Shown: positions 3,692-46,444 of the stretch, piece by piece
How positions within the stretch are numbered: the first letter of the stretch is position 1
How the letters are laid out: each line of letters opens with the position of its first letter
Assembly (NCBI GenBank): GCA_026394815.1
Contig: JAPLZX010000006.1
Span: 1-47,147 of the forward strand
Reading direction: 5' to 3'
DNA from: Candidatus Zambryskiibacteriota bacterium
Lineage (GTDB): Bacteria > Patescibacteriota > Minisyncoccia > Phycocordibacterales > DATDWN01
DNA: 47,147 bases
Notes under the pieces: generated by a model
The model's input: only the letters and a program-made list of their open reading frames with translations
Told to the model about the DNA's origin: nothing
Database searches by the model: none
Program-made: the position numbers and the translations under genes

Positions 3692-4145
3692 ACATATTCC
3701 AGATGAATTATTTAAAGAAATAGTAAGCAACATGCCTATTTGTACAGTAGATATTGTTTTTTTTAATGAAAAAAAAGACAGGATATTTCTATGTAAAAGA
3801 GCAAATGAGCCTTTAAAAGGAGTATTTATGACAAACGGAGGTAGACTTTTTAAAAACGAGGAGTTGGAAGATTGCGCGATTCGACAAGTTAAAACAGAGC
3901 TTGGTATTTCTATAAACAAGAATCAATTGGTTTTTGGAGGGATTACAAACATGATAACAAACGCTTCTAAATTCGATGAGACAAATTATCATGCTATGGA
4001 TATTTTTTTTGGGTATATAATAAATGAGTCCACTCCAATAAAACTTGATAATCAGCACAGCGAGTCTAAATGGTTTTCTATATACGATGAGTCTCTACAC
4101 CTGTATGCAAAAAGAAGTATTAATATTTTAATACCAAAATTATGA
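3675..4145 (+). CDS. gmm: NUDIX hydrolase, GDP-mannose mannosyl hydrolase-like
   Basis: The pattern [13 protein letters not shown]...[39 protein letters not shown] matches the Gmm/WcaH layout, and the gene lies between gmd and fcl. Start chosen at the internal ATG 3675; the ORF is open from 3654. Confidence 0.75.
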
Positions 4146-5074
4146 AAAAAAATTCAAAAATATTTGTTGCCGGACACAAAGGATTAGTAGGTTCAGCAAT
4201 TTTACGAAAACTTCAAAAAGAAGGGTATAAAAATATTGTAACAAGAACTCATAAAGAACTTGATTTAATAAATGCACCAAAAGTGACAGAATTTTTTAAA
4301 AAAGAAAAAATAGAATATGTTTTTATGGCTGCGGCAAAAGTAGGAGGTATCATGGCTAATAAAAATTTCCCCGCCGAGATGATTTATCAAAATATAGAAG
4401 TCCAAAATAACATTATTCATAATTCATACCTGACTGGAGTTAAAAAATTACTCTTTTTAGGAAGTTCGTGCATTTATCCTCGCCTGGCCCCTCAACCTAT
4501 AAAAGAAGAGTATCTTCTCTCTGGTCTTCTAGAACCAACCAATCAAGCTTATGCTATAGCAAAGATTTCTGGAATTGTGATGTGCCAATCTTATAACAAA
4601 GAATATGGGACAAACTTTATTTCAGCCATGCCAACTAATCTCTATGGACCAAATGATAATTTCGATTATGAAAATTCTCATGTCTTCCCCGCTATGATAA
4701 GAAAATTCCATGATGCAAAAGAAAAAAAGGAGAAAAGTATAACATTTTGGGGAACAGGCACACCAAAAAGGGAATTTCTACATGTTGATGATGTTGCTTC
4801 TGCGAGTCTCTTTCTTATGCTAAATTATAACGATTCAGAAATAATAAATGTTGGAACAGGAGAAGATATTTCTATATTAGAACTTGTAAATAAAATGAAA
4901 AAAATAATTGGATATAATGGTAAAGTCATCTGGGATAAAGAAAAACCAGATGGAATGCCGAGAAAACTCCTTGATGTAAGTAAAATCCATAATCTTGGAT
5001 GGAAACACATCATAGATGTAGACCGTGGTATTACAGAAACTTATGAATGGTTTTCAAAAAATGTATCTAAATAA
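4142..5074 (+). CDS. fcl: GDP-L-fucose synthase (GDP-4-keto-6-deoxymannose 3,5-epimerase/4-reductase); a ColC-type colitose synthase cannot be excluded
   Basis: KIFVAGHKGLVGSAI, LGSSCIYP, YAIAKISG and PTNLYGPNDNF are typical Fcl/WcaG motifs. ATGA overlap with gmm. Confidence 0.88.
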   Translation: MKKNSKIFVAGHKGLVGSAILRKLQKEGYKNIVTRTHKELDLINAPKVTEFFKKEKIEYVFMAAAKVGGIMANKNFPAEMIYQNIEVQNNIIHNSYLTGVKKLLFLGSSCIYPRLAPQPIKEEYLLSGLLEPTNQAYAIAKISGIVMCQSYNKEYGTNFISAMPTNLYGPNDNFDYENSHVFPAMIRKFHDAKEKKEKSITFWGTGTPKREFLHVDDVASASLFLMLNYNDSEIINVGTGEDISILELVNKMKKIIGYNGKVIWDKEKPDGMPRKLLDVSKIHNLGWKHIIDVDRGITETYEWFSKNVSK

Positions 5075-5115
5075 ATAATGATTAATTTTTAGAAAATAAT
5101 CCTATTTGAACCAAC

Positions 5116-5135
5116 TTGACACCTTTTGACACCTT
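5116..5135 (+). repeat. Perfect tandem direct repeat, 2 x TTGACACCTT
   Basis: ttgacacctt at 5116-5125 is repeated exactly at 5126-5135. The repeat overlaps the -35 region. Confidence 0.9.
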
Positions 5136-5143
5136 GCTATACT
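5116..5143 (+). promoter_or_regulatory. Near-consensus promoter with tandem -35 boxes directly upstream of the HTH gene
   Basis: TTGACA (5116-5121), 16-nt spacer ending in TGc, TATACT (5138-5143), then 8 nt to the ATG at 5152. Confidence 0.55.
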
Positions 5144-5151
5144 AGGCAAGT

Positions 5152-5397
5152 ATGGAAGAAATTAAACCAATGGCGGTTTACACAACCATTGAAACCCAAA
5201 AAGTGCTTCGTATCAGCGAAAGCACCATAAAACGCATGCTTAAAAATAGATTAATACGAGCTAATAAAGTTGGTGGTCAATATCGCATCTTGGGAAAGGA
5301 ACTTCTTCGTCTTGTTTCCCCTACTCTAGAAAAGAAAGCTATTCATTCCTACTTGGATGTCAAGAAAAAAGTCGTGAATAAAATAAATAAGTGGTAA
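5152..5397 (+). CDS. Small helix-turn-helix DNA-binding protein (excisionase/MerR-type HTH_17-like)
   Basis: 81 aa. YTTIETQKVLRISESTIKRMLKNRLIRANKVGGQYRILGKELLRLV matches the excisionase-family HTH pattern. Confidence 0.65.
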   Translation: MEEIKPMAVYTTIETQKVLRISESTIKRMLKNRLIRANKVGGQYRILGKELLRLVSPTLEKKAIHSYLDVKKKVVNKINKW

Positions 5398-5406
5398 AAT
5401 AAAAAA

Positions 5407-6246
5407 ATGGAAAAAACACCAGAACAAACATATGTAACAATAATTAGACCTAAAAAGCTTTTTTCCATTCGTGATATTACTGAACTCTGGAAATATAAAG
5501 AGCTTATGTATTTTTTTACCTGGCGTGACCTCAAGGTACGCTATAAGCAAACATTTATAGGTATTGTTTGGGCAATTATCCAACCTTTTATTACGATGGT
5601 GGTTTTTTCTGTTTTCTTTGGGGGACTTGCAAAAATGCCGTCAGATGGAGTTCCCTATCCAATTTTTGTTTATGTTGGTCTTTTATTTTGGCAATTTTTC
5701 TCAAGCGCCCTTGGTGACACTAGTAATTGTTTAGTAGCAAACCAATCTGTCATTACAAAAGTTTATTTCCCCCGCTTAATACTCCCAATATCTTCGGTTT
5801 TTACAAAATTGGTTGATTTTGCAGTGGCAACTTTAATGCTAGTAGTTTTGATGTTTTACTATGGATATGTGCCTCACATATCTGGACTTTTAATACTCCC
5901 CCTACTTCTTTTCATTACATTTATGGCTTCGGTTGGATTAGGACTTGTTTTAGCATCTATAAATGTTAAATACCGAGACGTGAGATATGCTCTTCCATTT
6001 TTTATACAAATAATGCTATTTCTTACACCGGTTATTTATCCCGCCTCAATTGCGGGTAAGTACTCGTTTATTTTGGCCTTAAACCCAATGACAGGGGTAA
6101 TACAAAATGCTCGCGCCGCTTTACTTGGAACGGCGCCCATCAATTGGCTATTGATTTTAATTTCTTTTATTGCAACATTTGTCATTATGATTATTGGTGT
6201 GTATTTTTTTAAGAAAACAGAAAGATTTTTCGCCGACATCGTATAA
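5407..6246 (+). CDS. wzm: ABC-2 type polysaccharide/teichoic-acid export permease (Wzm/TagG-like)
   Basis: 279 aa, 6 TM helices. N-terminal motif ELWKYKELMYFFTWRDLKVRYKQTFIGIVWAIIQP is typical of Wzm/TagG permeases. Confidence 0.9.
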   Translation: MEKTPEQTYVTIIRPKKLFSIRDITELWKYKELMYFFTWRDLKVRYKQTFIGIVWAIIQPFITMVVFSVFFGGLAKMPSDGVPYPIFVYVGLLFWQFFSSALGDTSNCLVANQSVITKVYFPRLILPISSVFTKLVDFAVATLMLVVLMFYYGYVPHISGLLILPLLLFITFMASVGLGLVLASINVKYRDVRYALPFFIQIMLFLTPVIYPASIAGKYSFILALNPMTGVIQNARAALLGTAPINWLLILISFIATFVIMIIGVYFFKKTERFFADIV

Positions 6247-6258
6247 CATACGAAAATT

Positions 6259-7488
6259 ATGTCTAACCCAATAATTGAGATAAAAAACATAGGAAAGAAG
6301 TACAATATCACCCATCAAAGAGGTGGTTATGTTACCTTAAGAGAAACAATCATGAATGTGTTAAAATCACCACTTTCTTTTTTGAAAGCAAAAACCAAAG
6401 AAGAGTTCTGGGCGTTAAAAGATATTTCATTAAACATACAAAAGGGAGAGGTTATAGGAATCATAGGTAAAAACGGCTCAGGCAAATCAACTCTTCTCAA
6501 GATACTTTCACAAATTACACCACCAACAACTGGAGAAATAACATTACGAGGTAAGATTAGAAGTCTTTTAGAAGTTGGCACTGGTTTTCATCCAGAATTG
6601 ACAGGAAGAGAAAATATTTTTCTCAACGGTGCAATTCTTGGGATGACAAAAAAGGAAGTCGTTAAAAAATTTAATGAAATTGTAGAATTTTCAGGTATTG
6701 ATAAGTTCCTTGATACACCTGTCAAATATTACTCAAGTGGTATGTATGTTCGTCTTGCCTTCTCTGTCGCCGCCCACATGGAATCAGATATTTTAATAGT
6801 TGATGAAGTGTTGGCTGTAGGAGATGCAGAATTTCAAAAAAAATGTCTCGGCAAGATGAAAGAAATGTCCACAGAAGCGGGCCGGACAATCATACTTGTT
6901 AGTCACAACATGACTGCTATAGAGCAAATGTGTTCACGAGTTGTTTTATTAGAAAAAGGAAGGGCAACTAAAATCGGACCAACGATAGAAATCGTCAATG
7001 AATATTTGGACAAATTCTTAGAATTCGGTGACGGTGAAATAACCCTAACCAAAAAACCAGGAGTAGATATTTCATTTTCTAAAATTTCTATAACTAATGA
7101 AAAAAATGTAATAACAAACAATATTAATTATAAAGAAAATTTTTATATCAATTTAGAGTTAGATGTTTTTAAAGAAACAAAAGATGTTGATTTGGGTATT
7201 TATTTTAAAAATTCTCTAAACACGGACTTGGTTTTTTCATGTTTATCAGACAAATCAAATGGTCAACTGAAAACTTTCAAACCCGGGAGGTATAATTTTA
7301 AAGTAGAATTTTCAGGTGGTTTTTTAATGCAAGGTATTTATTCTATAAAAATTAGTGTGCACAACCCTGGAATTTTAACCATTGATTCAAGAGATGATGT
7401 TATTAGTTTTTCGATATTACCTCCATCTGGAAGACCTGCGTCAAGAGGTGGTGCAGGTTGTGTTTCTATACCAAATCGTTGGATATAA
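6259..7488 (+). CDS. wzt: ABC polysaccharide export ATPase (Wzt/TagH-like) with a C-terminal extension resembling the Wzt carbohydrate-binding domain
   Basis: Walker A GKNGSGKST, signature YSSGMYVRLAF, Walker B ILIVDEVLAVGD, then about 160 extra residues predicted to be beta-rich (ISFSKISITNEKN...YNFKVEFSG...IKISVHNPG). Confidence 0.9.
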   Translation: MSNPIIEIKNIGKKYNITHQRGGYVTLRETIMNVLKSPLSFLKAKTKEEFWALKDISLNIQKGEVIGIIGKNGSGKSTLLKILSQITPPTTGEITLRGKIRSLLEVGTGFHPELTGRENIFLNGAILGMTKKEVVKKFNEIVEFSGIDKFLDTPVKYYSSGMYVRLAFSVAAHMESDILIVDEVLAVGDAEFQKKCLGKMKEMSTEAGRTIILVSHNMTAIEQMCSRVVLLEKGRATKIGPTIEIVNEYLDKFLEFGDGEITLTKKPGVDISFSKISITNEKNVITNNINYKENFYINLELDVFKETKDVDLGIYFKNSLNTDLVFSCLSDKSNGQLKTFKPGRYNFKVEFSGGFLMQGIYSIKISVHNPGILTIDSRDDVISFSILPPSGRPASRGGAGCVSIPNRWI

Positions 7489-7501
7489 CAAGAGATTAAA
7501 A

Positions 7502-8862
7502 ATGACACAACAGATAGACAAACAGAATATAATAAAAAAAATAATAGGCAATGATTTTGTTTATTCCGAAACAATTTCTCCTTTATCAAATCTTTGCCAA
7601 TATCTGATAAATAAAAAAATTTCATCAAAGAAAGACTGGTTTATTTTTCATAACAAATTTTTGGAAGTTTTTATTGCTCAATACAAACCAACCATTGATC
7701 AATTAACATTTATTAGAGCAGTCTCATTAAACACAATTTTTAAAGACAATGGTTTCCCAAAAATTGGAAATTTTGCATCTGACGAGGTAGACAATATAAG
7801 ATTTGAACCAATTTTAAATAAAAACCTACTTTTAATAAATCGTGATTGTTTGCAAAACCTTATGAAAGAACCAGATGTGGAACTGAAAAAATTAGCTGTA
7901 ACTGAGTTAAATATTATAGAAAAAGAAATAGCTCGTATAGACAATATAATAAACAGAGTACCTGACATTTTAACTAAAGATTTATCTGGAGGATTGAAAA
8001 AAGTAAATGGTAAACCGAAAGTCACTGTAATAACCGCTTCATATAACTTGGCTTCGATGGTAGAAGAAACCATACGTTCTGTGGCAAACCAAAATTATGA
8101 CAGTTTTGAACATATTGTCATAGATGGTGCTTCAACTGACGGTTCAGTTGAAGTCCAGAGGATGCTTATTGGAAAGGTCTTAGACTAGCAAAAGGAGATT
8201 ACATTATGACATGTTATATATCAGATGGTTATTCTAATGTAGACTGGATAAGAAAATGTGCAGAGGCGTTGGATAAAAATAAAGATGTATCTCTGATTTG
8301 GGGCATACCTTGGAGCATAGATAGAAATAGCCACATGATAAATGCTAGATTTACAGAATTTGATTACACAGAACAACCTCAAAGAGAAGAGTTGTTTTAT
8401 TGTTGGATGAAAACAGGTTTAAGCGCAGTAGAAACTAATTTGTGTGTTAGAAAAGAAGTGTTGCTCGAGTGTTACCCCACCCTGAAAGAATGTGAAAAAG
8501 ATATTTTGGACTGGCAAGAATTTACATTTAGATTCAACTCCAGAGGATATTTAGCACTACATATACCAGTCATAGCAAATTATTCTCATATTGACCATGA
8601 AGGAAAATATATGATGAGACTTAAAAAAAGTGGAAAGTATAAAAGACAACTTGATACATATAATCTTAATATGAGTAATTATATAAAAAGTTTGGTTTTG
8701 GGTTCTCATATTCACAAATTCATTGATAGTCATGGAAATATCCTCCCAATAAAATTTGATAGAAAACGAGTAATCGTAGATTATATAAAAAATAAGATAA
8801 AGAAAAATAAAAAATATATTCAACCATCAAAGTATGTAGCATATGTTAAAAAACTGTGGTAA
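7502..8862 (+). pseudogene. GT2 glycosyltransferase with a ~175-aa N-terminal extension, split across two frames near 8150
   Basis: Frame 2 gives KVTVITASYNLASMVEETIRSVANQNYDSFEHIVIDGASTDGSVE and then stops at 8188. The expected continuation (SPEDAYWKGLRLAKGDYIMTCYISDGY...) is open in frame 1 from 8152 to 8862. Confidence 0.6.
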
Positions 8863-8871
8863 TTTAAGCCT

Positions 8872-9486
8872 ATGAAAAAATTACTGACAAAAAAAGAACT
8901 GATTGCGTTTGAAGAAGAAATTGCAGATTGCTTTAATAAAGCCATGATTAAGGCCCCCGTTCATCTTTATAACGGCAATGAGAATAATATGTTATCAGTA
9001 TTTAAACATATAAATAAAAATGATTGGGTATTATGTTCGTGGAGAAATCATTACCAATGTTTACTAAAGGGTGTACCAAAAAAACAATTAAAGACTGATA
9101 TCTTAGCTGGTCGTTCAATTTCTCTTTGTTATAAAAAATATAAAATTATATCTTCTGGTATTGTTGCAGGTGTTCTTCCTATAGCTGTGGGAATTGCCTT
9201 GGATATAAAAAACAAAAATAAAAGTAATAAGGTGTTTTGTTTTATGGGAGATATGACCTCTGAAACTGGTGTTGCACATGAGTGTATTAAATATTGTATT
9301 AATAAAAAATTACCTATACATTTTATTATTGAAGATAATAGTAAATCTGTTTGTACTATAACAAGAGAGGTGTGGGGTCTTAATAAATTAACCTATGAAG
9401 ACATAGTAAATAAATACATAACTTTTTATAAGTATGATGGAAGCAAGTATCCCCATGCAGGAAGCGGAAAAAGAATTCAATTTTAA
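8872..9486 (+). CDS. Truncated thiamine-diphosphate-dependent E1 alpha-like subunit
   Basis: 204 aa. PVHLYNGNE, WRNHYQCLLKG, SGIVAGVLPIAVGIAL and the TPP-binding pattern FMGDMTSETGVAHECIKYCINKKLPIHFIIEDNSKS align by eye with PdhA/E1-alpha. Confidence 0.7.
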   Translation: MKKLLTKKELIAFEEEIADCFNKAMIKAPVHLYNGNENNMLSVFKHINKNDWVLCSWRNHYQCLLKGVPKKQLKTDILAGRSISLCYKKYKIISSGIVAGVLPIAVGIALDIKNKNKSNKVFCFMGDMTSETGVAHECIKYCINKKLPIHFIIEDNSKSVCTITREVWGLNKLTYEDIVNKYITFYKYDGSKYPHAGSGKRIQF

Positions 9487-9501
9487 AATATAAAATATTA
9501 T

Positions 9502-10038
9502 ATGAAATATTTTGACGAATTAAAAAAATCAATGGAATGGTTGGCATCAAAGTCAGAAACCCTTTTTTTGGGACAAGCAGTTGAATATCCTGGTACCGCA
9601 ATGACAAACACATTGATAAACATACCAAAAAACAAATTACTTGAAATGCCTGTAGCTGAGGAAATGCAAATGGGAATTTCAATTGGATTAGCTGTAAATG
9701 GAACTGTCCCAATAAGTATCTACCCGAGATGGAATTTTTTATTATTAGCAACAAATCAGTTAGTTAATCATCTCGATAAAATGTCAACCTATTCAAAAGG
9801 TGAATTTACACCGAAAGTGATAATAAGAACGTCTATTGGTTCTGAAAGGCCTATTAATCCTCAAATTCAACACGTCGGAGATTATTCGGATGCATTTAAA
9901 TTAATGTTAAAAAATGTTGAAATTATAGTTTTAGATGAACCGGAACAAATACTACCAGCATATAAAAAAGCCTATCTGCGAAAAGATGGTAAATCAACAA
10001 TATTAGTTGAGTATGGTGATTATTATAACGAAAAATAA
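9502..10038 (+). CDS. Truncated E1 beta / transketolase pyrimidine-binding-domain-like subunit
   Basis: 178 aa. FLGQAVEYPGTAM...LLEMPVAEEMQMGISIGLAVNGTVPISIYPRWNFLLLATNQLVNHLDK resembles the N-terminal half of E1-beta. No C-terminal transketolase domain is present. Confidence 0.65.
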   Translation: MKYFDELKKSMEWLASKSETLFLGQAVEYPGTAMTNTLINIPKNKLLEMPVAEEMQMGISIGLAVNGTVPISIYPRWNFLLLATNQLVNHLDKMSTYSKGEFTPKVIIRTSIGSERPINPQIQHVGDYSDAFKLMLKNVEIIVLDEPEQILPAYKKAYLRKDGKSTILVEYGDYYNEK

Positions 10039-12322: not shown

Positions 12323-13123
12323 ATGACATTCGTAGAAAAGATAAAAAAAATAATAGTTGATCCAAAAAAATATTGGAAAAACAGTAAAACTATAATGAAT
12401 TATTTTGGGAACTTTATAAAAAAAGTTTTGTTTATAAATAATATTCAGGAATGGCAAAAAAATAGAAATCAGATAAAATTTTATAAAAAATATATTATCA
12501 AAACAAACAAATTAATTTTTGATATCGGAGCAAATGTTGGTAAAAAGACTGACCTTTTTCTTAGACTTGAATATGTCGTAATAGTAGTCGAACCTCAATC
12601 CTTGATTGTAGCAGGTCTGCGTAAAAAATATCAAGATAATCCCAGAGTAATAGTAGAAGAATGTGGTATTGGGAAAGAAGAAGGAGAAGCTCAAATCAAT
12701 ATTTCCACAAAATACCCAGGGTTCTCTAGTTTCATTAAGGAGTGGCAAAAAGGAACAAAATATCATAGCTTTGAAAAAACGGAGAAAGTTAAATTGACCA
12801 CCCTTGATAAACTTATCAGTAAATATGGCCTACCAGATTTTTGTAAAATAGACGTTGAAGACTTCGAACATGAAGTTCTACTGGGACTATCGAGTAAAAT
12901 CCCAATGATAAATTTCGAATTTCACTCAAATAACAAGGAACAATTACTGTGGTGTTTGTCTAGATTGCAAACAATCGGCTATGATAGTTTTAACTTCGTG
13001 GTAGACGAAAATTCCATAATGTCTTCTGATATATGGTTGACTATAGATGAATTATTGACCAAGATAGAAACTCTTGAGAAAAATAGTAAAATTGTCATTT
13101 TGGGAGATGTATACGCAAAATAG
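12323..13123 (+). CDS. FkbM-family SAM-dependent methyltransferase
   Basis: IFDIGANVGKKTDLF...VVIVVEPQ...FCKIDVEDFEHEVLLG matches the FkbM pattern. Confidence 0.75.
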   Translation: MTFVEKIKKIIVDPKKYWKNSKTIMNYFGNFIKKVLFINNIQEWQKNRNQIKFYKKYIIKTNKLIFDIGANVGKKTDLFLRLEYVVIVVEPQSLIVAGLRKKYQDNPRVIVEECGIGKEEGEAQINISTKYPGFSSFIKEWQKGTKYHSFEKTEKVKLTTLDKLISKYGLPDFCKIDVEDFEHEVLLGLSSKIPMINFEFHSNNKEQLLWCLSRLQTIGYDSFNFVVDENSIMSSDIWLTIDELLTKIETLEKNSKIVILGDVYAK

Positions 13124-17504: not shown

Positions 17505-19010
17505 ATGAAAAATCTAGCTCCAATTACTTTATTTGTTTACAATCGCCTCTATCACACGAAGGAAACTGTTGATGCTTTACAAAAAAACACATTGGCAAGA
17601 GATAGTGATTTGTTTATTTACTCCGATGGACCAAAAAATGATGAGGATTCAAAAAAAATAATTGAATTAAGAAATTATCTGAAAACAATAGATGGTTTCA
17701 GATCTGTAATAATAATTGACAGAGAGAAAAATATAGGTTTAGCAAACTCAATTATTACTGGTATAACAGAAATCGTAAACCGTTTTAGTAAAATAATCGT
17801 GCTAGAGGACGATCTCGTTACATCACCATATTTTCTATCGTATATGAATCAAGGGTTGGACATGTATGAAAATGAAGATGAAGTCATAAGTATTCACGGA
17901 TATGTATACCCAACAAAAGAAAAACTCCCAGAAACATTTTTTATTAAAGGAGCTGATTGTTGGGGGTGGGCAACTTGGGCACGAGGTTGGAAATTATTTG
18001 AGCCTAATGGTTTAAAGCTTCTAAATGAGATAAAAAAACAAAAACTGGAAAAAGAATTCAATTTTAACGATAGTTTTAATTATATAAAAATGCTTAAGGG
18101 TCAGATTGAGGGTCGCAACGATTCATGGGCTGTCAGGTGGTATGCTTCAGCATTTTTAGCAAACAAATTAACTCTCTATCCAGGACAATCATTAGTTAAC
18201 AACATTGGTTTTGATGGAAGTGGAACTCATTCTGACAGTAAAAGCAGTAATCTTTTTGATGTTATTATTTCCACTGAAGAAACAAACTTGAAACCTACAG
18301 TAATAGAAGAAAATAAAACCGGAAGAAAAGCTTTTATAAAATATTTTAGAAAAAATAATCCAACTTATTTCAGTCGAATTAGAAATAAATTAAAAAAGAT
18401 AAAGAAATTGAGAGAATCTGTCCTAAAAACCAGAATATTATTTAATTATTATTTTGGATCTAAAAATCAACCCATAGATAAAAAATTGCCTTGGATAGCC
18501 AAAGATGCCATTAAATGGCTAGATCAATATCTTAAGAAAGATATGAAAGTTTTTGAATGGGGCAGCGGGGGGTCTACTTTATTTATTGCCGACAGAGTTA
18601 AGGAGATAATTTCAATTGAACATAATTATGAATGGTATCTTAAAACTCAAATGTATCTTCGATTTAATCGTATACACAACTGCAAATATGAACTTATAGA
18701 AGCAGAACCTAAAAAATCAGAAAAGTATTTGTCGACTGATAGACATTATATAAATCATAATTTTGAAAAATATTGTAAAGTCATAGATAATTCCCCTAAT
18801 GAATATTTTGATCTTGTATTTATTGATGGTAGAGCAAGACCATCATGTATTTTACATGCTGTAAATAAGGTCAAGATCGGTGGTTATATTCTTCTAGATA
18901 ATTCAGAAAGAGAAGAATATTCCTCTGGAATAAATATGCTGAAAGATTGGAAAATGATAGATTTTTCTGAAAACTCGTCTACAACAAGTGTATTTCAAAA
19001 AATAAAATAA
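17505..19010 (+). CDS. Bifunctional-looking fusion: N-terminal GT-A glycosyltransferase domain plus C-terminal class I SAM-methyltransferase-like domain
   Basis: N-terminus: APITLFVYNRLYHTKETVDALQKN...LFIYSDGPKN...IVLEDDL (DxD). C-terminus: VFEWGSGGSTLFIA...FDLVFIDGRARPSCILHAVNKVKIGGYILLDNSER. Confidence 0.65.
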   Translation: MKNLAPITLFVYNRLYHTKETVDALQKNTLARDSDLFIYSDGPKNDEDSKKIIELRNYLKTIDGFRSVIIIDREKNIGLANSIITGITEIVNRFSKIIVLEDDLVTSPYFLSYMNQGLDMYENEDEVISIHGYVYPTKEKLPETFFIKGADCWGWATWARGWKLFEPNGLKLLNEIKKQKLEKEFNFNDSFNYIKMLKGQIEGRNDSWAVRWYASAFLANKLTLYPGQSLVNNIGFDGSGTHSDSKSSNLFDVIISTEETNLKPTVIEENKTGRKAFIKYFRKNNPTYFSRIRNKLKKIKKLRESVLKTRILFNYYFGSKNQPIDKKLPWIAKDAIKWLDQYLKKDMKVFEWGSGGSTLFIADRVKEIISIEHNYEWYLKTQMYLRFNRIHNCKYELIEAEPKKSEKYLSTDRHYINHNFEKYCKVIDNSPNEYFDLVFIDGRARPSCILHAVNKVKIGGYILLDNSEREEYSSGINMLKDWKMIDFSENSSTTSVFQKIK

Positions 19011-19844: not shown

Positions 19845-21398
19845 ATGAATAAAACCAAAAATAAAAACGGTCCTGTTGTGCTTGTTACTAAAGATATTTC
19901 GTATACATTCCCTTTTGGGTATGCATATCTCGCAGGTTATTTAATAGAAAAAGGAGAAGAAGTAATTGTTTTATTTAGACCAAAAAAAGCATTTGATTAT
20001 AAAAAATTTGTCCAAGATATCATTGAACTTAAACCAGTATTAGTTGGATTTGGAACACTTTATCCAGACCTTTATCCAATCAAAAAACTAATCGAACTTT
20101 TAAATTTGGCTGGTAGAAATTTTCCAATTGTTATTGGTGGTCAAATGGTAACTCCAACACCTGAATTTGCTGTAAAAATAACTGGAGCTGATTTTGGGGT
20201 TGTCGGCGAAGGAGAAATTATCGTGGACGAATTAGTTAAGACTTTGCGAAAAAATAAAGACCCTCACCAAGTTAAGGGTGTCATAATAAACGAGAATGGT
20301 AAATTATCTTTTACTGAGTCTGGGGATTTTATAAAATACATGGCAAAACTACCTAAAATTCCATATACACTATTTCCTTCCAATAAATGGTTAGATATTG
20401 GACGATTTTATGTTGATATAGCTCAACCTCACTGGCGATATAATGATAAAGTTGTGGCCATTCATGGTGGCAGAGGATGCCCTTTTAATTGTAATTTTTG
20501 CTACCACCATAGTTTGTCCCGATATCGCTCTATAAATGATATGTTTGAAGAAATAAAAGTATTGATAAAAAAATATGACGCTAATATGTTGTATTTTGGG
20601 GATGATTTAGTATTAGCAACTCCAACCAGGGTTAAAGAGCTAACACAGGCAATAAGACAACTTGATAAAAAAGTTGAGTATTCGGTTTCTTGCCGCTTCG
20701 ATATATTAGATAGAATTAGTGATGAAATGCTACGAGAAATGAAAGAAACTGGTTGTCGAATTATGGGATTAGGCATTGAATCGGGGTCACAAAGAATACT
20801 TGATATAATTGATAAAAGAATTACAACTGAACAAATTATTAAAGGCATGCGACGCCTAAAAGATGCCGGTATTCTCCCTACAGTGAGTATAATGGTTGGA
20901 CAATACACTGAAACCGTTGAAGATGTACAGAAATCAATAGACTTAATGCTAGAAACCCTAAATTACAATAAAAATGTTAATTATGCTTTTACTATTTGTA
21001 CCCCATTTCCTGGTACCAAGTTATATAACGTTGCTTTGGAGAAAAAATTAATCAAAGATGATTTTGATTTTTATAAAAAATTCGATCCTGATAAAGAAAT
21101 AGGAGGTTTATCTGTTAATCTTTCAGCTATGAATGATAAAGAAGTTGTAGTTATGCATAGAAAAATAAGTGATATATATTTACAAAGAAAAAAAGATTTG
21201 ATTGGTAGAAAAGTAATGCTAGTAGAAGCTACTCGTCATTTTGTATATAGAGTTTATAATAAAATTACTAAAACAATAATAGACAAACTCCCAGAAAAAT
21301 CAGTATTTATATTAATTAAAAAATTGTATCACAATAGCCACAACGCAATTCAATTTTGTCTAGACAGATTTAGACTTTATTTGTTAGATGTGAGATAA
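19845..21398 (+). CDS. B12-binding-domain radical SAM protein (class B radical SAM, methyltransferase-like)
   Basis: N-terminal Rossmann-like B12-binding region (PVLVGFGTLY...IVIGGQMVT) followed by GGRGCPFNCNFCYHH (CX3CX2C, codons 20478-20501). Length 517 aa. Confidence 0.85.
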   Translation: MNKTKNKNGPVVLVTKDISYTFPFGYAYLAGYLIEKGEEVIVLFRPKKAFDYKKFVQDIIELKPVLVGFGTLYPDLYPIKKLIELLNLAGRNFPIVIGGQMVTPTPEFAVKITGADFGVVGEGEIIVDELVKTLRKNKDPHQVKGVIINENGKLSFTESGDFIKYMAKLPKIPYTLFPSNKWLDIGRFYVDIAQPHWRYNDKVVAIHGGRGCPFNCNFCYHHSLSRYRSINDMFEEIKVLIKKYDANMLYFGDDLVLATPTRVKELTQAIRQLDKKVEYSVSCRFDILDRISDEMLREMKETGCRIMGLGIESGSQRILDIIDKRITTEQIIKGMRRLKDAGILPTVSIMVGQYTETVEDVQKSIDLMLETLNYNKNVNYAFTICTPFPGTKLYNVALEKKLIKDDFDFYKKFDPDKEIGGLSVNLSAMNDKEVVVMHRKISDIYLQRKKDLIGRKVMLVEATRHFVYRVYNKITKTIIDKLPEKSVFILIKKLYHNSHNAIQFCLDRFRLYLLDVR

Positions 21399-22455: not shown

Positions 22456-23196
22456 ATGAAAGGTATTGTATTGGCTGGTGGAAAAGCCACGAGATTATCT
22501 CCACTAACTTTAGTTACAAACAAGCACCTACTGCCTGTATACAACAAACCAGTCATCTATTACGCAATTGAAAAGCTTGTAGCGGCTGGTATTGATAGAA
22601 TAATGATTGTTACATCCCCACATCATTTAGATGATTTTGTGCAACTTTTGGGATCCGGCCAAAACTTCACTTCAATAAAAACGAACAAACAAATCCAGAT
22701 TGTATATGGTATTCAAAACGAAGCCTCTGGAATAGCCGATGGACTATATATAGCTAAAGACTATATAGGAAATGATAATTGTCTCTTGTATTTAGGAGAC
22801 AATATTATTGAAGATGATATCGGAAACCATATTAAAAATTTTAAAAGCGGAGCACTCATATTTCTAAAAAAGGTCACTGATCCAAAAAGATTTGGTGTGG
22901 CCAGTTTAAACAAAAAAGGGATGGTGGTAGAGATAGAAGAGAAACCAAAAAAGCCAAAATCAAATCTCGCTGTTGTCGGTCTTTATGTATATGATAATAG
23001 CGTTTTTAATAAAATGATTGGGCAACCAAAATCAAATAGAGGAGAATATGAAATTACTTATTTAAATAATAAATATATAGAGGAAAAAAAATTAAAAGCC
23101 ATTATTCTTAAAGAAAAATGGTTTGATATAGGAACATTTGATAGTCTTATAGAAGCTTCAATATATAAAAAACAACAAAGCAAAAAAAATGGTTAA
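22456..23196 (+). CDS. Sugar-1-phosphate nucleotidyltransferase (RmlA/short-form family); NDP specificity unknown
   Basis: MKGIVLAGGKATRLSPLTLVTNKHLLPVYNKPVIYYAIEKLVAAGIDRIMIVT is the canonical N-terminal nucleotidyltransferase motif. Length 246 aa. Confidence 0.85.
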   Translation: MKGIVLAGGKATRLSPLTLVTNKHLLPVYNKPVIYYAIEKLVAAGIDRIMIVTSPHHLDDFVQLLGSGQNFTSIKTNKQIQIVYGIQNEASGIADGLYIAKDYIGNDNCLLYLGDNIIEDDIGNHIKNFKSGALIFLKKVTDPKRFGVASLNKKGMVVEIEEKPKKPKSNLAVVGLYVYDNSVFNKMIGQPKSNRGEYEITYLNNKYIEEKKLKAIILKEKWFDIGTFDSLIEASIYKKQQSKKNG

Positions 23197-23944
23197 TTTT
23201 ATCAAAAAAAATAAAATTACTCGGAAACTATACTTCATTTACAAAAGGGTGTTGCAAAAAAATCTGTATAACAAACAATACGACGACTTCAAGAATAAAC
23301 TTGATAACAAAAGGGGTTTTTCATTTAACAAAAATGACAGAAAGATTATGTTAAATGATAATACCAAATTGACAAATTTTGATACTCATTATATTTATCA
23401 TCCTGCATGGGCAACGAGAATACTTCAAAGAACGAACCCTAAATTACATATTGATATTTCAGGAACACTAAGTTTTGCTTCTATTGTTTCTGCTTTTATC
23501 CCTGTTAAGTTTTATGATTATCGTCCAGCAAATTTAAAACTAAGTATTTCAAATCAAACGGATCTACAAAATCTCCCGTTTGAGAATAATAGTATTTTAT
23601 CAATTTCTTGTATGCATACTGTAGAACATATAGGTCTCGGAAGATATGGTGACCCTATTGAACCAGATGGAGATTTAAAAGCTATTTCTGAACTAAAAAG
23701 AGTACTAGCAAAAGATGGTAATTTATTATTTGTGGTGCCAAAAAAAAAAAAAAAAATATGCTTTAATGCTCACAGAATATACTCCTATGAACAAATAATG
23801 AAATATTTTTCTGATTTAACCTTACAAGAATTTTCTCTTATTCCCGATAATGCAATAGATGTTGGTATGATTGATAATGCCACAAAAGAAATGGCCGATA
23901 AACAAGAATATGGTTGCGGCTGTTTTTGGTTCATAAAAGAATAA
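23189..23944 (+). CDS. DUF268-type class I SAM-dependent methyltransferase-like protein containing an in-frame poly-Lys from an A17 tract
   Basis: ISCMHTVEHIGLGRYGDPIEPDGD...LKRVLAKDGNLLFVVP-KKKKK-ICFNAHRIYSY matches the DUF268 pattern. Confidence 0.65.
   Translation: MVNFIKKNKITRKLYFIYKRVLQKNLYNKQYDDFKNKLDNKRGFSFNKNDRKIMLNDNTKLTNFDTHYIYHPAWATRILQRTNPKLHIDISGTLSFASIVSAFIPVKFYDYRPANLKLSISNQTDLQNLPFENNSILSISCMHTVEHIGLGRYGDPIEPDGDLKAISELKRVLAKDGNLLFVVPKKKKKICFNAHRIYSYEQIMKYFSDLTLQEFSLIPDNAIDVGMIDNATKEMADKQEYGCGCFWFIKE
23740..23756 (+). repeat. 17-nt poly(A) homopolymer inside a CDS
   Basis: gtggtgcc-A17-tatgc, counted from the sequence (23740-23756). It is by far the longest homopolymer I saw in the window; others are 9 nt or shorter. 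Confidence 0.95.
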
Positions 23945-23956
23945 TTTTAAAAAGGG

Positions 23957-24808
23957 ATGATTATAATTAAACTAGAGGGGGGTCTCGGTAATCAGATGTT
24001 CCAGTATGCATTGGGACGTAATTTGTCTTTGATCCACAATACTACTTTTAAGATAGATTATTCATACCTAAAAAAAGCTAATCAAAGTCAGAGAACTCTT
24101 ATAATAGATAACTACAATACAGTATTAGAAGAAGTTACAGATAAGGAAGTTGCTTCTTATACTTCTATCTTTCAAAAAATTTTAGACAAAATCCGTTCAA
24201 AAAAGAAAATGGTTGTGGAAAAATCAAATTTGTTTGATTCAAATATCTTGTTACGAAATGACGGATACTTTGTTGGACATTGGAATAATGAGAAATATTT
24301 CAAAATCAACGAAAATATAATCAGAAATGATTTTAAACTCAAAAAACCTTTTGGAGAAATGGCACAAACAACTGCAGAAAAGATAAATTCTACACCAAAT
24401 GCAACTGGTATACATATTCGTCGTGGAGATTATGTGACCATCAAGAAAATTGCTGACAAACATGGAGTTCTGTCAATTTCATATTACGAACAGACAATGG
24501 CTAAAATTATTGAGAGGTTTCCTGATACTGTTTTCTTTGTGTTCTCAGATGACATGGAATGGGCCAAAGAAAATTTCCCTAAAAAATACCCCGTTATTTT
24601 TGTCTCAAATCCAAATATTCCAGATTATGAAGAACTAATCCTAATGAGCCTCTGTAAACACAACATTATTGCTAATAGCACATTTAGTTGGTGGGGTGCG
24701 TGGTTAAACACAAATCCTAATAAGATTGTTATTGCACCAAAAAATTGGTTTACAGATATAAATAAAGATACAAATGATTTAATTTTACCAGCATGGATAC
24801 AAATATAA
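23957..24808 (+). CDS. GT11 alpha-1,2-fucosyltransferase-like glycosyltransferase (copy 2)
   Basis: GGLGNQMFQYALGRNLS, GIHIRRGDY and ANSTFSWWGAWL. Paralogue of 14488-15393. Confidence 0.85.
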   Translation: MIIIKLEGGLGNQMFQYALGRNLSLIHNTTFKIDYSYLKKANQSQRTLIIDNYNTVLEEVTDKEVASYTSIFQKILDKIRSKKKMVVEKSNLFDSNILLRNDGYFVGHWNNEKYFKINENIIRNDFKLKKPFGEMAQTTAEKINSTPNATGIHIRRGDYVTIKKIADKHGVLSISYYEQTMAKIIERFPDTVFFVFSDDMEWAKENFPKKYPVIFVSNPNIPDYEELILMSLCKHNIIANSTFSWWGAWLNTNPNKIVIAPKNWFTDINKDTNDLILPAWIQI

Positions 24809-25815
24809 ACAAACCAAAAATTACTGTTTTTATTCCATTGTATAATAATGAAAAATACATTGGAAAAACAATTGAAAGTATTCTTAAACAAACATATCAA
24901 GATTTTGAAATTCTTATTATTGATGACAAATCAACTGATAAAAGTGTGGAAATTGTTATGTCCTACAATGACCCACGAATAAGATTAATGCATAATGATA
25001 AAAATGAGGGGGTGGTATATACAAGAAATAGAGGATTGGAAGAAACCCACACAGATTACATTGCAATCCTAGATTCAGACGATATTTCTTTACCAACTCG
25101 TCTAGAAGAACAAATAAAATTTTTGGAAACCCATCATGACTTTGCTTTAGTGGGAACATGGACTGAAATTATTGATTCAATGGGAAATAAAACTGGTGTG
25201 GTATGGAAAAATGATATTTCTCCTGAAATGATACCTATGATATTACTCTTCCAAAATTGTTTTAGTCAATCATCAGTAATGATAAGAATGAAGGCTGTTG
25301 AACAAAATAGGTATCGCAGTCCAGATACAGATGAAGATTATGACTTGTGGATACAAATATCAAAGAAATGGAAGATGTGGAATATTCCAAAAATTCTTAC
25401 TCAATATCGTACACACCAAACAAACATTAGTAAGAAAATATTCAAAAGACCATTTGTAGAAAATGAAATAAAAAATGAACTCTCTCGTTTAAATATAGAT
25501 ATAAATGACGAAGAAATGGTTATTCATAAAACAAATTATCTATATAATAAACCAGATGTAAAAGATTTTATTTTAAAACGAGAACAATGGCTTTTAAAGC
25601 TAAAAGTAGCAAACCAAAATGTTGGCCTTTTCTCAGAAAAAACTTTTACAGAAGTAATACAAGAAAGATGGCTTACTAGTTGTAGTGCCAATGCCTATGT
25701 TGGATTTTGGATATGGAAAACGTTTTGGAAATCTGATTTGAGTAATGGAACTATAAAAACCAACCTCCCTGCTATTTTAAAATTTTTTATAAAATGTCTT
25801 ATAAGGAAAACCTAA
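24793..25815 (+). CDS. GT2 glycosyltransferase
   Basis: ITVFIPLYNNEKYIGKTIESILKQTYQDFEILIIDDKSTDKS...ILDSDDI (DxD). Length 340 aa. Confidence 0.85.
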   Translation: MDTNINKPKITVFIPLYNNEKYIGKTIESILKQTYQDFEILIIDDKSTDKSVEIVMSYNDPRIRLMHNDKNEGVVYTRNRGLEETHTDYIAILDSDDISLPTRLEEQIKFLETHHDFALVGTWTEIIDSMGNKTGVVWKNDISPEMIPMILLFQNCFSQSSVMIRMKAVEQNRYRSPDTDEDYDLWIQISKKWKMWNIPKILTQYRTHQTNISKKIFKRPFVENEIKNELSRLNIDINDEEMVIHKTNYLYNKPDVKDFILKREQWLLKLKVANQNVGLFSEKTFTEVIQERWLTSCSANAYVGFWIWKTFWKSDLSNGTIKTNLPAILKFFIKCLIRKT

Positions 25816-45833: not shown

Positions 45834-45859
45834 TATACAACAAAGTGATTAATTGTAAA
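45832..45859 (-). promoter_or_regulatory. Putative promoter for the ATPase/GT4 operon
   Basis: Minus strand TTTACA (45859-45854), 16-nt spacer, TATAAT (45837-45832, overlapping the first ATG), then 10 nt to the second in-frame ATG (45821). Confidence 0.4.
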
Positions 45860-45893
45860 AATAAACCCATTTTAAGAAAATGAGTTTATTTTT
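45857..45893 (-). terminator. Intrinsic terminator after the pilin gene (bidirectional shape)
   Basis: aaaaataaacccatttt (45857-45873), loop aag, aaaatgagtttattttt (45877-45893): a 15-bp stem with one G-U/mismatch position and a U-run on both strands. Confidence 0.6.
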
Positions 45894-45914
45894 GTATATA
45901 TAATTAAATAAAAA

Positions 45915-46340
45915 TTAAGAGCAATTTGTCGCACCAGCAAGTTCTGTCGCCTCACCCCTCCCAACACCAAGACTGTCTACACACCAATAAAGATTAGCCC
46001 CTTCTGGAGTTTTTAGTAAAGCATTTGCTGCCCACGCAGTATCACTATTATTACATCTTTCAGCCAAAGTTCCTGTATCACCTCCTGTAACCAAAGCCTG
46101 ACTTATGGCATTTATTACATTTTGGTTTGCACAAACAGTACTATAAACTTGGCCATTATCACTATAAACAATTTCCGCCTGACTTCTGATTCCAGCTAGG
46201 TTAGCTTTAACAGCAGCATTTGCTCCTTTAGATCTGGCATTGTTTAGAGACGACAATACAACAGAAGCTAAAATACCAATAATAGCAATTACCACAAGTA
46301 ATTCAATTAACGTAAAACCTTTAGTAAATTTTTTAGACAT
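45915..46340 (-). CDS. Type IV pilin / prepilin-type N-terminal cleavage-methylation domain protein
   Basis: MSKKFTKGFTLIELLVVIAIIGILASVVL is the class III signal peptide plus conserved Glu5 helix. Two Cys pairs lie in the C-terminal part. Start chosen at 46340 rather than the track start 46409. Confidence 0.88.
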   Translation of the reverse strand: MSKKFTKGFTLIELLVVIAIIGILASVVLSSLNNARSKGANAAVKANLAGIRSQAEIVYSDNGQVYSTVCANQNVINAISQALVTGGDTGTLAERCNNSDTAWAANALLKTPEGANLYWCVDSLGVGRGEATELAGATNCS

Positions 46341-46444
46341 AATTTTAAGTAATTTATAATAATAACTAGAATTTATTATATAATGAATTAACTTTTTATA
46401 ACAGTCCATTTATCTACCTAGGACTAATTCTAAATTTAAAATTA

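Follow-up and report, generated by a model that had tools for sequence, protein, structure and literature searches.

An in-frame A17 tract in a DUF268-family methyltransferase gene as a candidate for leaky phase variation of a surface glycan

Introduction

The Lewis-antigen fucosyltransferase genes futA, futB and futC of Helicobacter pylori are switched by poly-C tracts, and vaa of Mycoplasma hominis carries a poly(A) switch in a small, AT-rich and surface-dependent organism; classical contingency genomes contain many such tracts each. In Escherichia coli O8 and O9a, an ABC-transporter-dependent O-antigen receives a terminal methyl cap from WbdD, and the Wzt protein features a C-terminal carbohydrate-binding module. 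The capsule heptose 6-O-methyltransferase of Campylobacter jejuni is encoded by cj1426, which contains an intragenic poly-G tract with switching of ~2.5e-2 (PMC8437040). Listeria monocytogenes inlA harbors a poly(A) tract in the 5' part of its coding sequence, and a typical switch tract is 5'-proximal (PMC2831843). In the work of Tamas et al. (2008), as it is cited in PMC5574713 and PMC5009743, replication slippage on poly(A) impairs genes in Buchnera and Blochmannia and transcriptional slippage partly rescues them. Slippage of RNA polymerase on runs of at least 9 A/T (PMC5009743) as well as sliding of ribosomes on A runs (PMC5574713) are documented. Our literature search found no paper linking the candidate phyla radiation (CPR) with phase-variable loci; a hypervariable 9-mer repeat protein has been described for a Gracilibacterium (PMC6851277).

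Here we analyze a run of 17 adenines (A17) inside a predicted methyltransferase gene, located in a stretch of DNA of 47,147 nucleotides (referred to as the window), for which an earlier note had proposed a phase-variation switch. The features that define the locus are the following:

23740-23756, + strand: uninterrupted A17 homopolymer (letters of the window and codon reading)
23189..23944, + strand: DUF268-family class-I SAM-dependent methyltransferase, 251 aa (Pfam, homologue alignment and fold)
23741..23755, + strand: five codons, residues 185-189, replacing the conserved turn [IVLM]-G-x-[PSA]-[KR] (homologue alignment and structure model)

The A17 gene resembles cj1426 in that a homopolymer lies inside the open reading frame of a glycan O-methyltransferase within a polysaccharide cluster, the activity of the A17 enzyme being predicted, and in that a one-unit change, in silico in the case of A17, causes a frameshift and truncates the enzyme, which would render a single methyl decoration stochastic. 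The cj1426 tract, however, is a G/C tract of ~8-11 nt, one of 29 in the genome, whose variation was shown experimentally, whereas A17 is a single A tract known from assembled sequence; the enzyme families also differ, as only the A17 gene belongs to DUF268. With futA, futB and futC the locus would share slipped-strand switching around a fucosylated surface glycan, and the window too has GT10 and GT11 genes, but these fucosyltransferase genes lack a long tract while the adjacent methyltransferase gene has one, and base and organism are different. As in inlA and vaa, poly(A) within a reading frame would lead to reversible frameshifts at rates far above that of point mutation; their tracts, however, comprise ~7-9 A and are 5'-proximal, whereas the tract in the window comprises 17 A, late in the gene and over a conserved structural turn. 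A long coding A run in a small, AT-rich genome, with expression expected to hinge on the infidelity of both DNA and RNA polymerase, is likewise reminiscent of Buchnera and Blochmannia, yet endosymbionts are littered with long A/T runs as a result of mutational bias and weak selection, while the window is depleted of runs of at least 9 nt and the tract is the exception. In common with the WbdD system, the island has Wzm, Wzt with a Wzt_C domain and several methyltransferases, which makes a methyl cap read by Wzt a possible role for one of these methyltransferases; the DUF268 protein itself is unrelated to WbdD and has neither a kinase nor a coiled-coil domain.

Results

The tract is bordered by a C at 23739 and a T at 23757 and is flanked by TTATTTGTGGTGCC on the 5' side and TATGCTTTAATGCTCA on the 3' side. 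Letters and codons agree on 17 consecutive A residues read in frame as KKKKK, as had been noticed before: in the open reading frame 23189..23944 (+), CCA AAA AAA AAA AAA AAA ATA encodes the center of LLFVVP-KKKKK-ICFNAHRIY, with the tract providing the third base of the Pro184 codon (CCA), the five AAA codons of Lys185-189 and the first base of the Ile190 codon (ATA). Homologues align over the full length of the protein and so support the start at 23189; in the database, the gene call (P0001) is a protein of 198 aa starting at Met54, and this called protein has no record elsewhere. The tract is located at 73% of the gene length, and this late, non-5'-proximal position counts against reading it as a switch.

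Assignment of the protein to the DUF268 type, which the earlier note had made from the translation, was borne out by a Pfam match to PF03269 (E 1.2e-13, 51.8 bits against a gathering cutoff of 25), and a match to Methyltransf_11 falls just under its gathering cutoff (20.9 against 21.2 bits). The confident AF2 model of the protein (pLDDT 85.8, pTM 0.85) displays a class-I (Rossmann-like) methyltransferase fold, and the top Foldseek matches are all SAM methyltransferases (2p8j, 3l8d, RebM, AtmM and NodS, with E down to 2.7e-8) of the generic class-I type only. A PDB profile search with the protein and a tblastn search against plasmids each returned 0 matches, and there is no NCBIfam model for the family. 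The predicted function is methyl transfer to a glycan acceptor. In the literature, DUF268 is listed as a domain of unknown function that occurs in glycosylation clusters of nematodes (PMC7614267), and no member of the family has been characterised. Of the 72 columns conserved to at least 95% among 119 homologues, 70 are kept, the exceptions being S92G and G186K; across the family, the number of deviations at conserved columns has a median of 1 and a maximum of 5. The family blocks HYIYHPAWA, EHIGLGRYGD, FNAHR and CGCFWF are all retained. Judged by its sequence, the gene outside A17 is not decayed, its conservation being no worse than that of other family members.

The turn replaced by the tract connects a strand ending at residue 185 with a short strand (189-191) and is directly followed by the FNAHR block. 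All 115 motif-matched sequences among the 119 close homologues compared carry a loop of the type I-G-K-P-K at this site, and the change to KKKKK is a length-preserving substitution of five codons, 15 nt for 15 nt; the short loop before FNAHR has thus indeed been replaced, as previously suggested, with its length unchanged. Within the loop, G186 is conserved to at least 95% among the 119 close homologues and persists in the majority of the remote homologues; the A17 protein has also lost the hydrophobic residue 185 to Lys, while residues 187 and 189 are already Lys/Arg in homologues and residue 188 is variable (P/S/A/Q/D). As the tract overwrites a near-invariant Gly, the in-frame product may be impaired.

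A Lys-rich loop was found in none of the 119 close and ~85 remote homologues with a readable loop motif. In 85 orthologous loci (1.38 Mb) the longest A run at the site is at most A6, and A/T runs longer than 10 occur nowhere in these loci. The earlier note had named a non-repetitive, AAG/AAA-mixed Lys run in orthologues as evidence against a switch; the stretch that they carry is non-repetitive but encodes I-G-K-P-K rather than a run of Lys. The closest homologue among 5.8 billion proteins (P0002) is 69% identical. Allowing for a variable gap, a scan of metagenome contigs for the exact flanks gave 0 matches, and the pattern of A12, 3-12 nt and the FNAHR codons has no real match in 241 million metagenome contigs; its lone return (L086) is a purine-rich low-complexity contig and was rejected as a chance match. 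Since none of the orthologues examined has the tract, it represents a novelty of one lineage rather than a conserved contingency locus, and since every relative lacks it, its origin would be recent. Frameshifted family members in a 50%-identity library show breaks at scattered positions; the one frameshift in the same loop (P0304) is an apparent 1-nt loss in CCAATT, away from a homopolymer. A recurrent frameshift hot spot in the loop, for which these members give no evidence, was discarded.

The loss of the near-invariant Gly186 together with the hydrophobic residue 185, in a turn right beside the best-conserved block of the family, would also be in line with gene decay. Under this explanation the tract exists in the cells, but the protein with KKKKK has lost its catalytic activity or its stability, the loss of the gene has just begun and the tract is a product of runaway slippage that regulates nothing, the in-frame state being a 1-in-3 accident; the absence of the tract from every relative and the presence of at least one already disrupted gene in the island, the split GT2 near 8150-8165, fit such a course of events. 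The remainder of the gene, however, shows no relaxation, with 70/72 conserved columns kept, the tract preserves both the frame and the exact loop length, and the substitution falls on positions of which 187 and 189 were Lys/Arg beforehand and 188 is free to vary. Moreover, because other long runs are efficiently purged, the persistence of a useless A17 would require a very recent origin. On balance we consider decay unlikely.

To place A17 in the context of its own sequence background, the homopolymers of the window were compared to shuffled sequence and to a first-order Markov model. The longest homopolymers besides A17 are an A9 (11013) and a T9 (28006), so that the earlier remark on other homopolymers being 9 nt or shorter holds for the window. 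The tract occurs in 0/100 dinucleotide-preserving shuffles, and the Markov model predicts 0.013 A runs of at least 17 nt. Shorter runs show the opposite tendency: 2 A runs of at least 9 nt are observed against 11.5 expected, a depletion, and 1 T run of at least 9 nt against 3.2, while the single run of at least 10 nt, A17 itself, stands against 4.9 expected. A12 matches do arise in the shuffles, with a mean of 1.7. Composition alone was rejected as the source of A17, as real runs of at least 9 nt are depleted and the tract appears in no shuffle. The same tendency is seen in the Lys codons, 84% of which are AAA: all 13 other runs of at least three Lys in the window contain AAG (p = 1.1e-5). Among the KKK runs of low-GC orthologous loci (554 kb), 12/83 consist of AAA alone where 42.5 would be expected, and K5 runs are lacking in these loci. 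Depletion of runs and AAG-broken Lys runs show that the genome otherwise purges, or selects against, slippery runs. Against this background A17 is over-represented, which points to local selection or to a recent origin. Poly(A) erosion of the endosymbiont type was dismissed for the window, given that long A/T runs are not abundant and Lys runs are broken by AAG. No further simple-sequence repeat candidate was found in the 47-kb window, and although the window consists nearly entirely of glycan genes it holds one long tract only, which, as far as these 47 kb go, counts against the switch reading.

The codon statistics also bear on the idea that the five AAA codons act without any switching, either as a constitutive attenuator throttling output by stalling or sliding of ribosomes and slippage of RNA polymerase, or through a useful change at the protein level, for example a poly-Lys turn contacting an anionic lipid-linked substrate, with the DNA length being stable enough for heritable switching to matter little. 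The loop was basic beforehand (K/R at 187 and 189), A runs are known to cause slippage and sliding, and at 84% AAA usage a K5 peptide has a naive probability of 0.42 of being encoded by AAA throughout. As AAG interrupts 13/13 of the other Lys runs, however, a K5 made up of AAA only is not the rule in this genome, nor does any of the 119 close and ~85 remote readable homologues have a Lys-rich loop, and we know of no mechanism that could give A17 stability in replication. We therefore regard such a constitutive role as very improbable.

All sequencing platforms are prone to errors in the length of long homopolymers, and a metagenome assembly may misstate the exact length of A17 by 1-2 nt. The tract as a whole might be an artefact or of wrong length, arising from a consensus or polishing error, a base-encoding overwrite of an A-rich stretch (e.g. 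CCA ATA GGA AAA CCA AAA ATA) or a homopolymer miscall. An exact swap of 15 nt for 15 nt is the automatic outcome of an overwriting error, the ancestral stretch was A-rich already, as exemplified by CCAATCGGAAAACCAAAAATT in L054, and the tract is seen once, with no independent contig. Yet the window contains neither N's nor other anomalous runs, the intact open reading frames that densely fill nearly all of it, with no frameshifts at many A7-A9 runs, argue against a homopolymer-noisy assembly, and to our knowledge no common process turns an internal stretch of mixed contig sequence into A residues only, all of which renders an artefact distinctly unlikely.

In order to follow the consequences of a change in tract length, the gene was read in silico with shortened and lengthened tracts. 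A14, A17 and A20 yield full-length proteins of 250, 251 and 252 aa, respectively, and as the reading frame is kept only at lengths of 14, 17, 20 and so on, the full protein is made only there. Loss or gain of a single nucleotide leads to early stops:

23764..23766, + strand: TAA stop reached by A18 (+1 nt), 192-aa product ending ...KKKKKNML (in silico reading)
23796..23798, + strand: TAA stop reached by A16 (-1 nt), 202-aa product ending ...KKKKKYALMLTEYTPMNK (in silico reading)

Neither the A16 nor the A18 product contains the FNAHR and CGCFWF blocks. The alternative tails span just 3 and 13 codons, on which grounds switching between C-termini or to an alternative-frame product was rejected. 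A17 exceeds the threshold for transcriptional slippage (an A/T run of at least 9 nt; PMC5009743). A programmed transcriptional-slippage recoding site of the type found in Thermus dnaX or IS elements was likewise set aside, there being no substantial alternative open reading frame or second product. Rfam matches are absent from the window, no terminator-like sequence lies beside A17 and promoter-like sites are at chance level; a role as RNA element, terminator or promoter was rejected on this basis. By analogy with the documented cases, RNA polymerase slippage and ribosome sliding at A17 would blur any ON/OFF switch.

The methyltransferase gene lies among closely spaced genes for glycan assembly, and the window also encodes the components of an exporter:

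22456..23196, + strand: RmlA-like sugar-1-phosphate nucleotidyltransferase, upstream; its 3' end shares 8 nt with the start of the methyltransferase gene
23957..24808, + strand: GT11 (alpha-1,2-fucosyltransferase family), downstream, 12 nt past the methyltransferase stop
24793..25815, + strand: GT2 glycosyltransferase, sharing 16 nt with the end of the GT11 gene
5407..7488, + strand: Wzm (ABC-2 permease) and Wzt (ABC ATPase with Wzt_C carbohydrate-binding domain)

The genes for the RmlA-like protein, DUF268, GT11 and GT2 form an operon-like array, and by arrangement GT2 and GT11 belong to one transcription unit. The presence of Wzm and Wzt marks the island as an ABC-transporter-dependent glycan pathway. 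In all, the window encodes, besides Wzm and Wzt, Gmd, a NUDIX protein, two GT11 and one GT10 enzymes, several methyltransferases and an epimerase/reductase of the type completing GDP-fucose synthesis, which is assigned to the general type only. By its predicted gene content, the window is a Wzm/Wzt-type, GDP-fucose-related surface-glycan island. Another GT2 gene is split over two frames near 8150-8165, its Pfam score rising from 37.8 to 53.7 bits once the frames are fused. Across the 85 loci with DUF268 family genes, GT11 occurs within 10 kb in 59 and directly downstream in 18, being the most frequent immediate neighbor, and Wzt is present in 32. This linkage of DUF268 with GT11 and Wzm/Wzt suggests a testable function, the O-methylation of fucosylated glycans. 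The best matches of the window genes are mostly from Patescibacteria, with some DPANN archaea for WecB, and homologues of the neighboring WecB-like gene are at most 70% identical. While tRNAs and marker genes are absent from the 47-kb window, assignment to a CPR-like host is plausible.

Discussion

The explanation that we favor, and to which we would give about an even chance of being correct, is that A17 is a real, young and hypermutable tract making methylation stochastic and leaky, which would amount to operational phase variation rather than a conserved contingency locus. A young poly(A) tract would have overwritten, codon for codon, the five-residue turn before FNAHR. From what is known of homopolymers, a 17-nt A run is expected to slip often in replication, giving rise to heritable and reversible ON and OFF subpopulations. 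The run would slip in transcription too, and ribosomes would slide on the consecutive AAA codons; the yield of full-length enzyme would thus be reduced in ON cells, while OFF cells would still produce a little of it through leakage. Taken together, cells would differ from one another in a single O-methyl group decorating a surface glycan, which is probably fucosylated, and the switch would have originated in this lineage only.

The phase-variation switch proposed in the earlier note is thus upheld in part. Its mechanism is physically plausible: changes of +/-1 nt truncate the protein before its C-terminal blocks and other runs are purged, but the tract is a novelty of one lineage and not a conserved contingency locus. 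The overwritten near-invariant Gly, the blurring at the level of RNA and ribosome and the marker-free window behind the CPR-like label are points that the note did not contain.

A stronger version, in which A17 is a selected contingency switch of a CPR/Patescibacteria-type episymbiont that toggles the DUF268 O-methyltransferase and hence the methylation of a fucosylated surface glycan, is put forward tentatively and strikes us as doubtful. If it were true, the methyl group may be a terminal cap read by the Wzt domain, such that export or chain length would change as well, and the resulting surface heterogeneity would be relevant to host attachment or to evasion of phages and lectins. It would also be the first description from the CPR radiation of a phase-variable locus built on a simple-sequence repeat and would provide a first functional handle on DUF268, a domain shared with nematode glycosylation clusters.

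If the tract were an artefact or part of a dying gene, the finding would be an ordinary one. The case is unusually clean, in that slippery runs are purged elsewhere, the tract is the sole exception and all relatives lack it. Should the tract prove both genuine and variable, slipped-strand mispairing as used by the host-adapted pathogens Campylobacter, Helicobacter, Neisseria and Mycoplasma would also serve uncultured bacteria of ultra-small size to diversify the glycans on their surface.

An in-frame A17 tract in a DUF268 methyltransferase gene

Positions 23740-23756 hold an uninterrupted run of 17 A residues, flanked by C on the 5' side and T on the 3' side, whose codons (CCA AAA AAA AAA AAA AAA ATA) are read in frame as ...LLFVVP-KKKKK-ICFNAHRIY. 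The tract is carried by the following gene:

23189..23944, + strand, DUF268 methyltransferase ORF of 251 aa

Sequence, codons and a match of the product to Pfam DUF268 (PF03269, 51.8 bits against a cutoff of 25) agree, confirming the observation of an in-frame KKKKK in a DUF268-type methyltransferase made in the earlier note. Methyltransf_11 matches the same protein at 20.9 bits, just under its gathering cutoff of 21.2. The AlphaFold model is confident (pLDDT 85.8, pTM 0.85), and the structures it resembles most are without exception class-I SAM methyltransferases, among them the sugar O-methyltransferases RebM and AtmM. The DUF268 family has no characterised member, and neither the PDB nor NCBIfam yielded a relative. 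The database gene call for this protein (P0001, 198 aa) begins at Met54 of the 251-aa ORF (23348 compared with 23189). Since homologues cover the full 251 aa, aligning from residue 1-10, we prefer the start at 23189, which overlaps the end of the upstream RmlA-like gene by 8 nt; judging from these alignments, the database call probably misses 53 codons.

The tract replaces a conserved loop

The loop motif is readable in 115 of the 119 closest homologues (55-71% identical), and in all 115 the five loop residues, framed by the invariant Pro184 and by Ile/Val190, read [IVLM]-G-x-[PSA]-[KR]. The commonest version, I-G-K-P-K, is as long as KKKKK, in keeping with the claim that the tract replaces a short loop ahead of FNAHR. 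The loop glycine is at least 95% conserved among the 119 and is retained in most remote family members of a 50%-identity representative library, none of which has a Lys-rich loop. In the AlphaFold model residues 186-188 form a tight turn, placed immediately before the FNAHR block, between a strand ending at 185 and a short strand spanning 189-191. Orthologue DNA at the loop reads, for example, CCA ATT GGA AAA CCA AAG ATT or CCA ATC GGA AAA CCA AAA ATT. Comparing tract length in relatives, as had been proposed, yielded no long tract: the A run at the loop site reaches at most 6 in the 85 loci with DUF268 homologues, and A17 is therefore derived. It could have arisen by five to seven substitutions towards A or by slippage-driven expansion with compensating loss of adjacent bases; the loop has ended at exactly the ancestral length.

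Loss of the glycine may already have killed the enzyme, in which case the gene would be decaying. This we regard as unlikely: the island does hold at least one disrupted gene, a GT2 domain split over two frames near 8150-8165, but the methyltransferase is otherwise intact and has kept both its frame and its loop length. Seventy of the 72 columns conserved at 95% or more are kept (exceptions S92G and G186K), within the range of deviations in other family members (median 1, maximum 5), and by this comparison the gene outside the loop is free of degradation.

In the apparently disrupted GT2 gene (7990-8862, + strand), the N-terminal 48 domain residues end ORF 7382..8188, and the continuation, SPEDAYWKGLRLAKGDYI...SDG, lies in a different frame that shares bases with it around 8150-8165. 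The break does not fall at a homopolymer; fusing both frames raises the Pfam score from 37.8 to 53.7 bits. A frameshift in the same loop as A17 occurs in P0304, a homologue from another organism in the 50%-identity library, where ...LLFVVP is followed by LANTTRYILTLTVYIL, a shifted reading of ...YFNAHRIYS; apparently 1 nt was lost from CCAATT and not from a homopolymer. Other frameshifted representatives are broken at scattered positions.

Long A runs are avoided elsewhere

The next longest homopolymers in the window, which has a GC content of 32%, are A9 and T9, matching the earlier statement that the others are 9 nt or shorter. A first-order model predicts 0.013 A runs of at least 17 nt, and A17 was absent from all 100 dinucleotide-preserving shuffles of the window; the tract is more than chance. 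Runs of 7-8 A are at or above expectation, whereas only 2 runs of at least 9 are observed against 11.5 expected, and only 1 of at least 10, A17 itself, against 4.9. At the codon level AAA accounts for 84% of the 1,451 Lys codons in window genes (80-84% across the window and related low-GC loci), and yet all 13 other runs of at least three Lys in the 48 long ORFs contain AAG (p = 1.1e-5). Across the low-GC orthologous loci (554 kb), KKK is all-AAA in 12 of 83 cases against 42.5 expected, none of five KKKK runs is all-AAA, and no K5 run occurs. Such AAG interruption is clear evidence, at the level of codons, that selection acts against slippery A runs in these AT-rich genomes. Because Tandem Repeats Finder returned no other simple-repeat candidate in the window and its Lys runs are broken by AAG, A17 is the single exception to a run avoidance otherwise enforced. 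That A17 is a constitutive attenuator or a useful poly-Lys loop is very improbable, given that the genome consistently breaks Lys runs with AAG and no relative has a Lys-rich loop. Poly(A) erosion of the endosymbiont style was rejected, long runs being depleted in this genome.

Nor do the 1.38 Mb of orthologous glycan loci contain any A/T run longer than 10 nt; these clusters or lineages therefore do not commonly carry long tracts. The exact flanks of A17 had no match in the metagenome collection. A scan of 241 million metagenome contigs for at least 12 A followed, after 3-12 nt, by FNAHR codons returned only one contig of 7,970 nt (Ga0179593_1736059; region 4000-6400), which consists almost wholly of low-complexity, purine-rich sequence and has many A10-A14 and G-rich runs on one strand; it looks like an assembly or sequencing artefact and was rejected as a chance match of the pattern. 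No protein more than 69-70% identical to the DUF268 methyltransferase or to WecB was found among 5.8 billion sequences, the named best matches being mostly Patescibacteria (Parcubacteria, Minisyncoccia, Kuenenbacteria and others) with some DPANN archaea. A CPR-like source organism is plausible. The window contains no tRNA, Rfam match or marker gene. No independent contig carries A17, and overwriting a stretch that was A-rich to begin with, at unchanged length, would give the same picture; that the tract is an artefact or of wrong length nevertheless seems slightly less likely than decay, as the many A7-A9 runs of the assembly show no homopolymer frameshifts.

Length changes would switch the gene

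At 17 nt, a homopolymer greatly exceeds the length from which slipped-strand mispairing is frequent. In silico, A14, A17 and A20 give full-length protein, while A16 leads to a stop at residue 202 (TAA 23796-23798) and A18 to one at residue 192 (TAA 23764-23766), both products losing the C-terminal strands and the CGCFWF block as well as FNAHR. The off-frame tails comprise only 13 (A16) and 3 codons (A18), so no alternative product is hidden there, and a programmed transcriptional-slippage site was rejected since there is no alternative ORF.

The best-matched precedent is cj1426 of C. jejuni, a capsule O-methyltransferase gene which likewise carries a homopolymer tract, although of poly-G rather than A, and has a switching rate, in either direction, of about 2.5e-2 per generation (PMC8437040). 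On A/T runs of at least 9, slippage of bacterial RNA polymerases yields mRNAs with extra bases at a frequency that grows exponentially with run length (PMC5009743, PMC5574713), and ribosomes slide on consecutive AAA codons (PMC5009743). Replication slippage at A17 would create heritable ON and OFF subpopulations, and because polymerase and ribosome slippage would add to the effect of tract length, ON cells are expected to have a lower output and OFF cells to leak, so that A17 would behave more like a noisy dimmer than like a clean toggle. The tract, its frame, the truncations, the conservation of the gene, the scarcity of such runs elsewhere and the glycan setting are shown by the sequences; how fast the tract slips in this organism, the activity of the enzyme with the KKKKK loop, its acceptor and any adaptive value are what we infer here.

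Glycan context

Glycan biosynthesis takes up nearly all of the 47-kb window.

Glycan genes of the window
Sugar-related enzymes: UDP-glucose dehydrogenase, DegT aminotransferase, WecB epimerase
GDP-fucose type: GDP-mannose 4,6-dehydratase, NUDIX protein, epimerase/reductase of the type completing GDP-fucose synthesis
Fucosyltransferase families: two GT11, one GT10
Exporter: Wzm, and Wzt with a Wzt_C carbohydrate-binding domain (6259-7488, + strand)
Other enzymes: FkbM-type methyltransferase, B12/radical-SAM enzyme
Further genes: two PMT_2 proteins, GtrA, Wzy_C protein, many GT2/GT4

The A17 gene sits in an array of RmlA-like, DUF268, GT11 and GT2 genes with overlapping or nearly abutting ends (DUF268-GT11, 23189-24808). 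DUF268 genes are tightly linked to GT11: 59 of 85 loci have a GT11 gene within 10 kb of the DUF268 homologue, and in 18 it is the next gene downstream. Linkage to Wzm/Wzt is frequent too, with Wzt found in 32 loci. From these neighbourhoods we infer that the family may methylate a fucosylated glycan from an ABC-transporter-dependent pathway. In E. coli O8/O9a the Wzt_C domain reads a terminal methyl or methyl-phosphate cap. Family members are about 55-65% identical across Patescibacteria, Bacteroidota, Acidobacteriota, Geobacter relatives and a Methanoculleus, and this high conservation suggests horizontal spread of a fucosyl-glycan O-methylation module. DUF268 genes also sit in C. elegans glycosylation clusters, and the nematode fucose-modifying methyltransferase is still missing (PMC7614267).

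At the locus of the closest homologue (P0002, JGI 3300050046) the order is NTP_transferase, FdtA, DegT, DUF268, GT11; the window has the same flanks without the FdtA isomerase and aminotransferase between nucleotidyltransferase and methyltransferase, which points to a rearrangement or deletion that recently took place immediately upstream of the A17-bearing gene. Other candidate methyltransferases of the island, any of which might cap the chain, are an FkbM-type protein (12323-13123), a 501-aa protein whose C-terminal half is weakly Methyltransf_24-like (17505-19010) and a B12-binding radical SAM enzyme (19845-21398). Two small adjacent ORFs at 8872-10038 (+ strand) match an N-terminal E1_dh/DXP_synthase_N half and a Transket_pyr (pyrimidine-binding) half of thiamine-diphosphate enzymes; adjoining an epimerase/dehydratase and the DegT aminotransferase, this split enzyme may make an unusual sugar side chain. 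Adjoining the end of the island (44166-47038, - strand) are genes for a HerA/TraG/VirD4-like P-loop ATPase, for a small protein bearing a prepilin N-terminal methylation motif and for one with a weak match to a bacterial surface Ig-like domain; they could belong to a pilus or DNA-uptake-type module.

A candidate contingency locus

The working principle of A17 would be the classical simple-sequence contingency mechanism acting on a glycan-modifying enzyme. Its membership among contingency loci is partly established: tract length, frame toggling in silico and local excess over background are present, but the tract is not conserved in relatives. Stochastic switching of glycan methylation, as previously put forward, is accordingly only partly supported, being mechanically sound, with length changes that truncate the protein, yet evolutionarily young and unproven. 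The accompanying remark that such loci are little documented in CPR-like organisms agrees with our literature search, in which a Gracilibacterium protein with hypervariable 9-mer repeats came closest (PMC6851277). If real, A17 would represent a known contingency mechanism in a lineage for which this search found no documented case.
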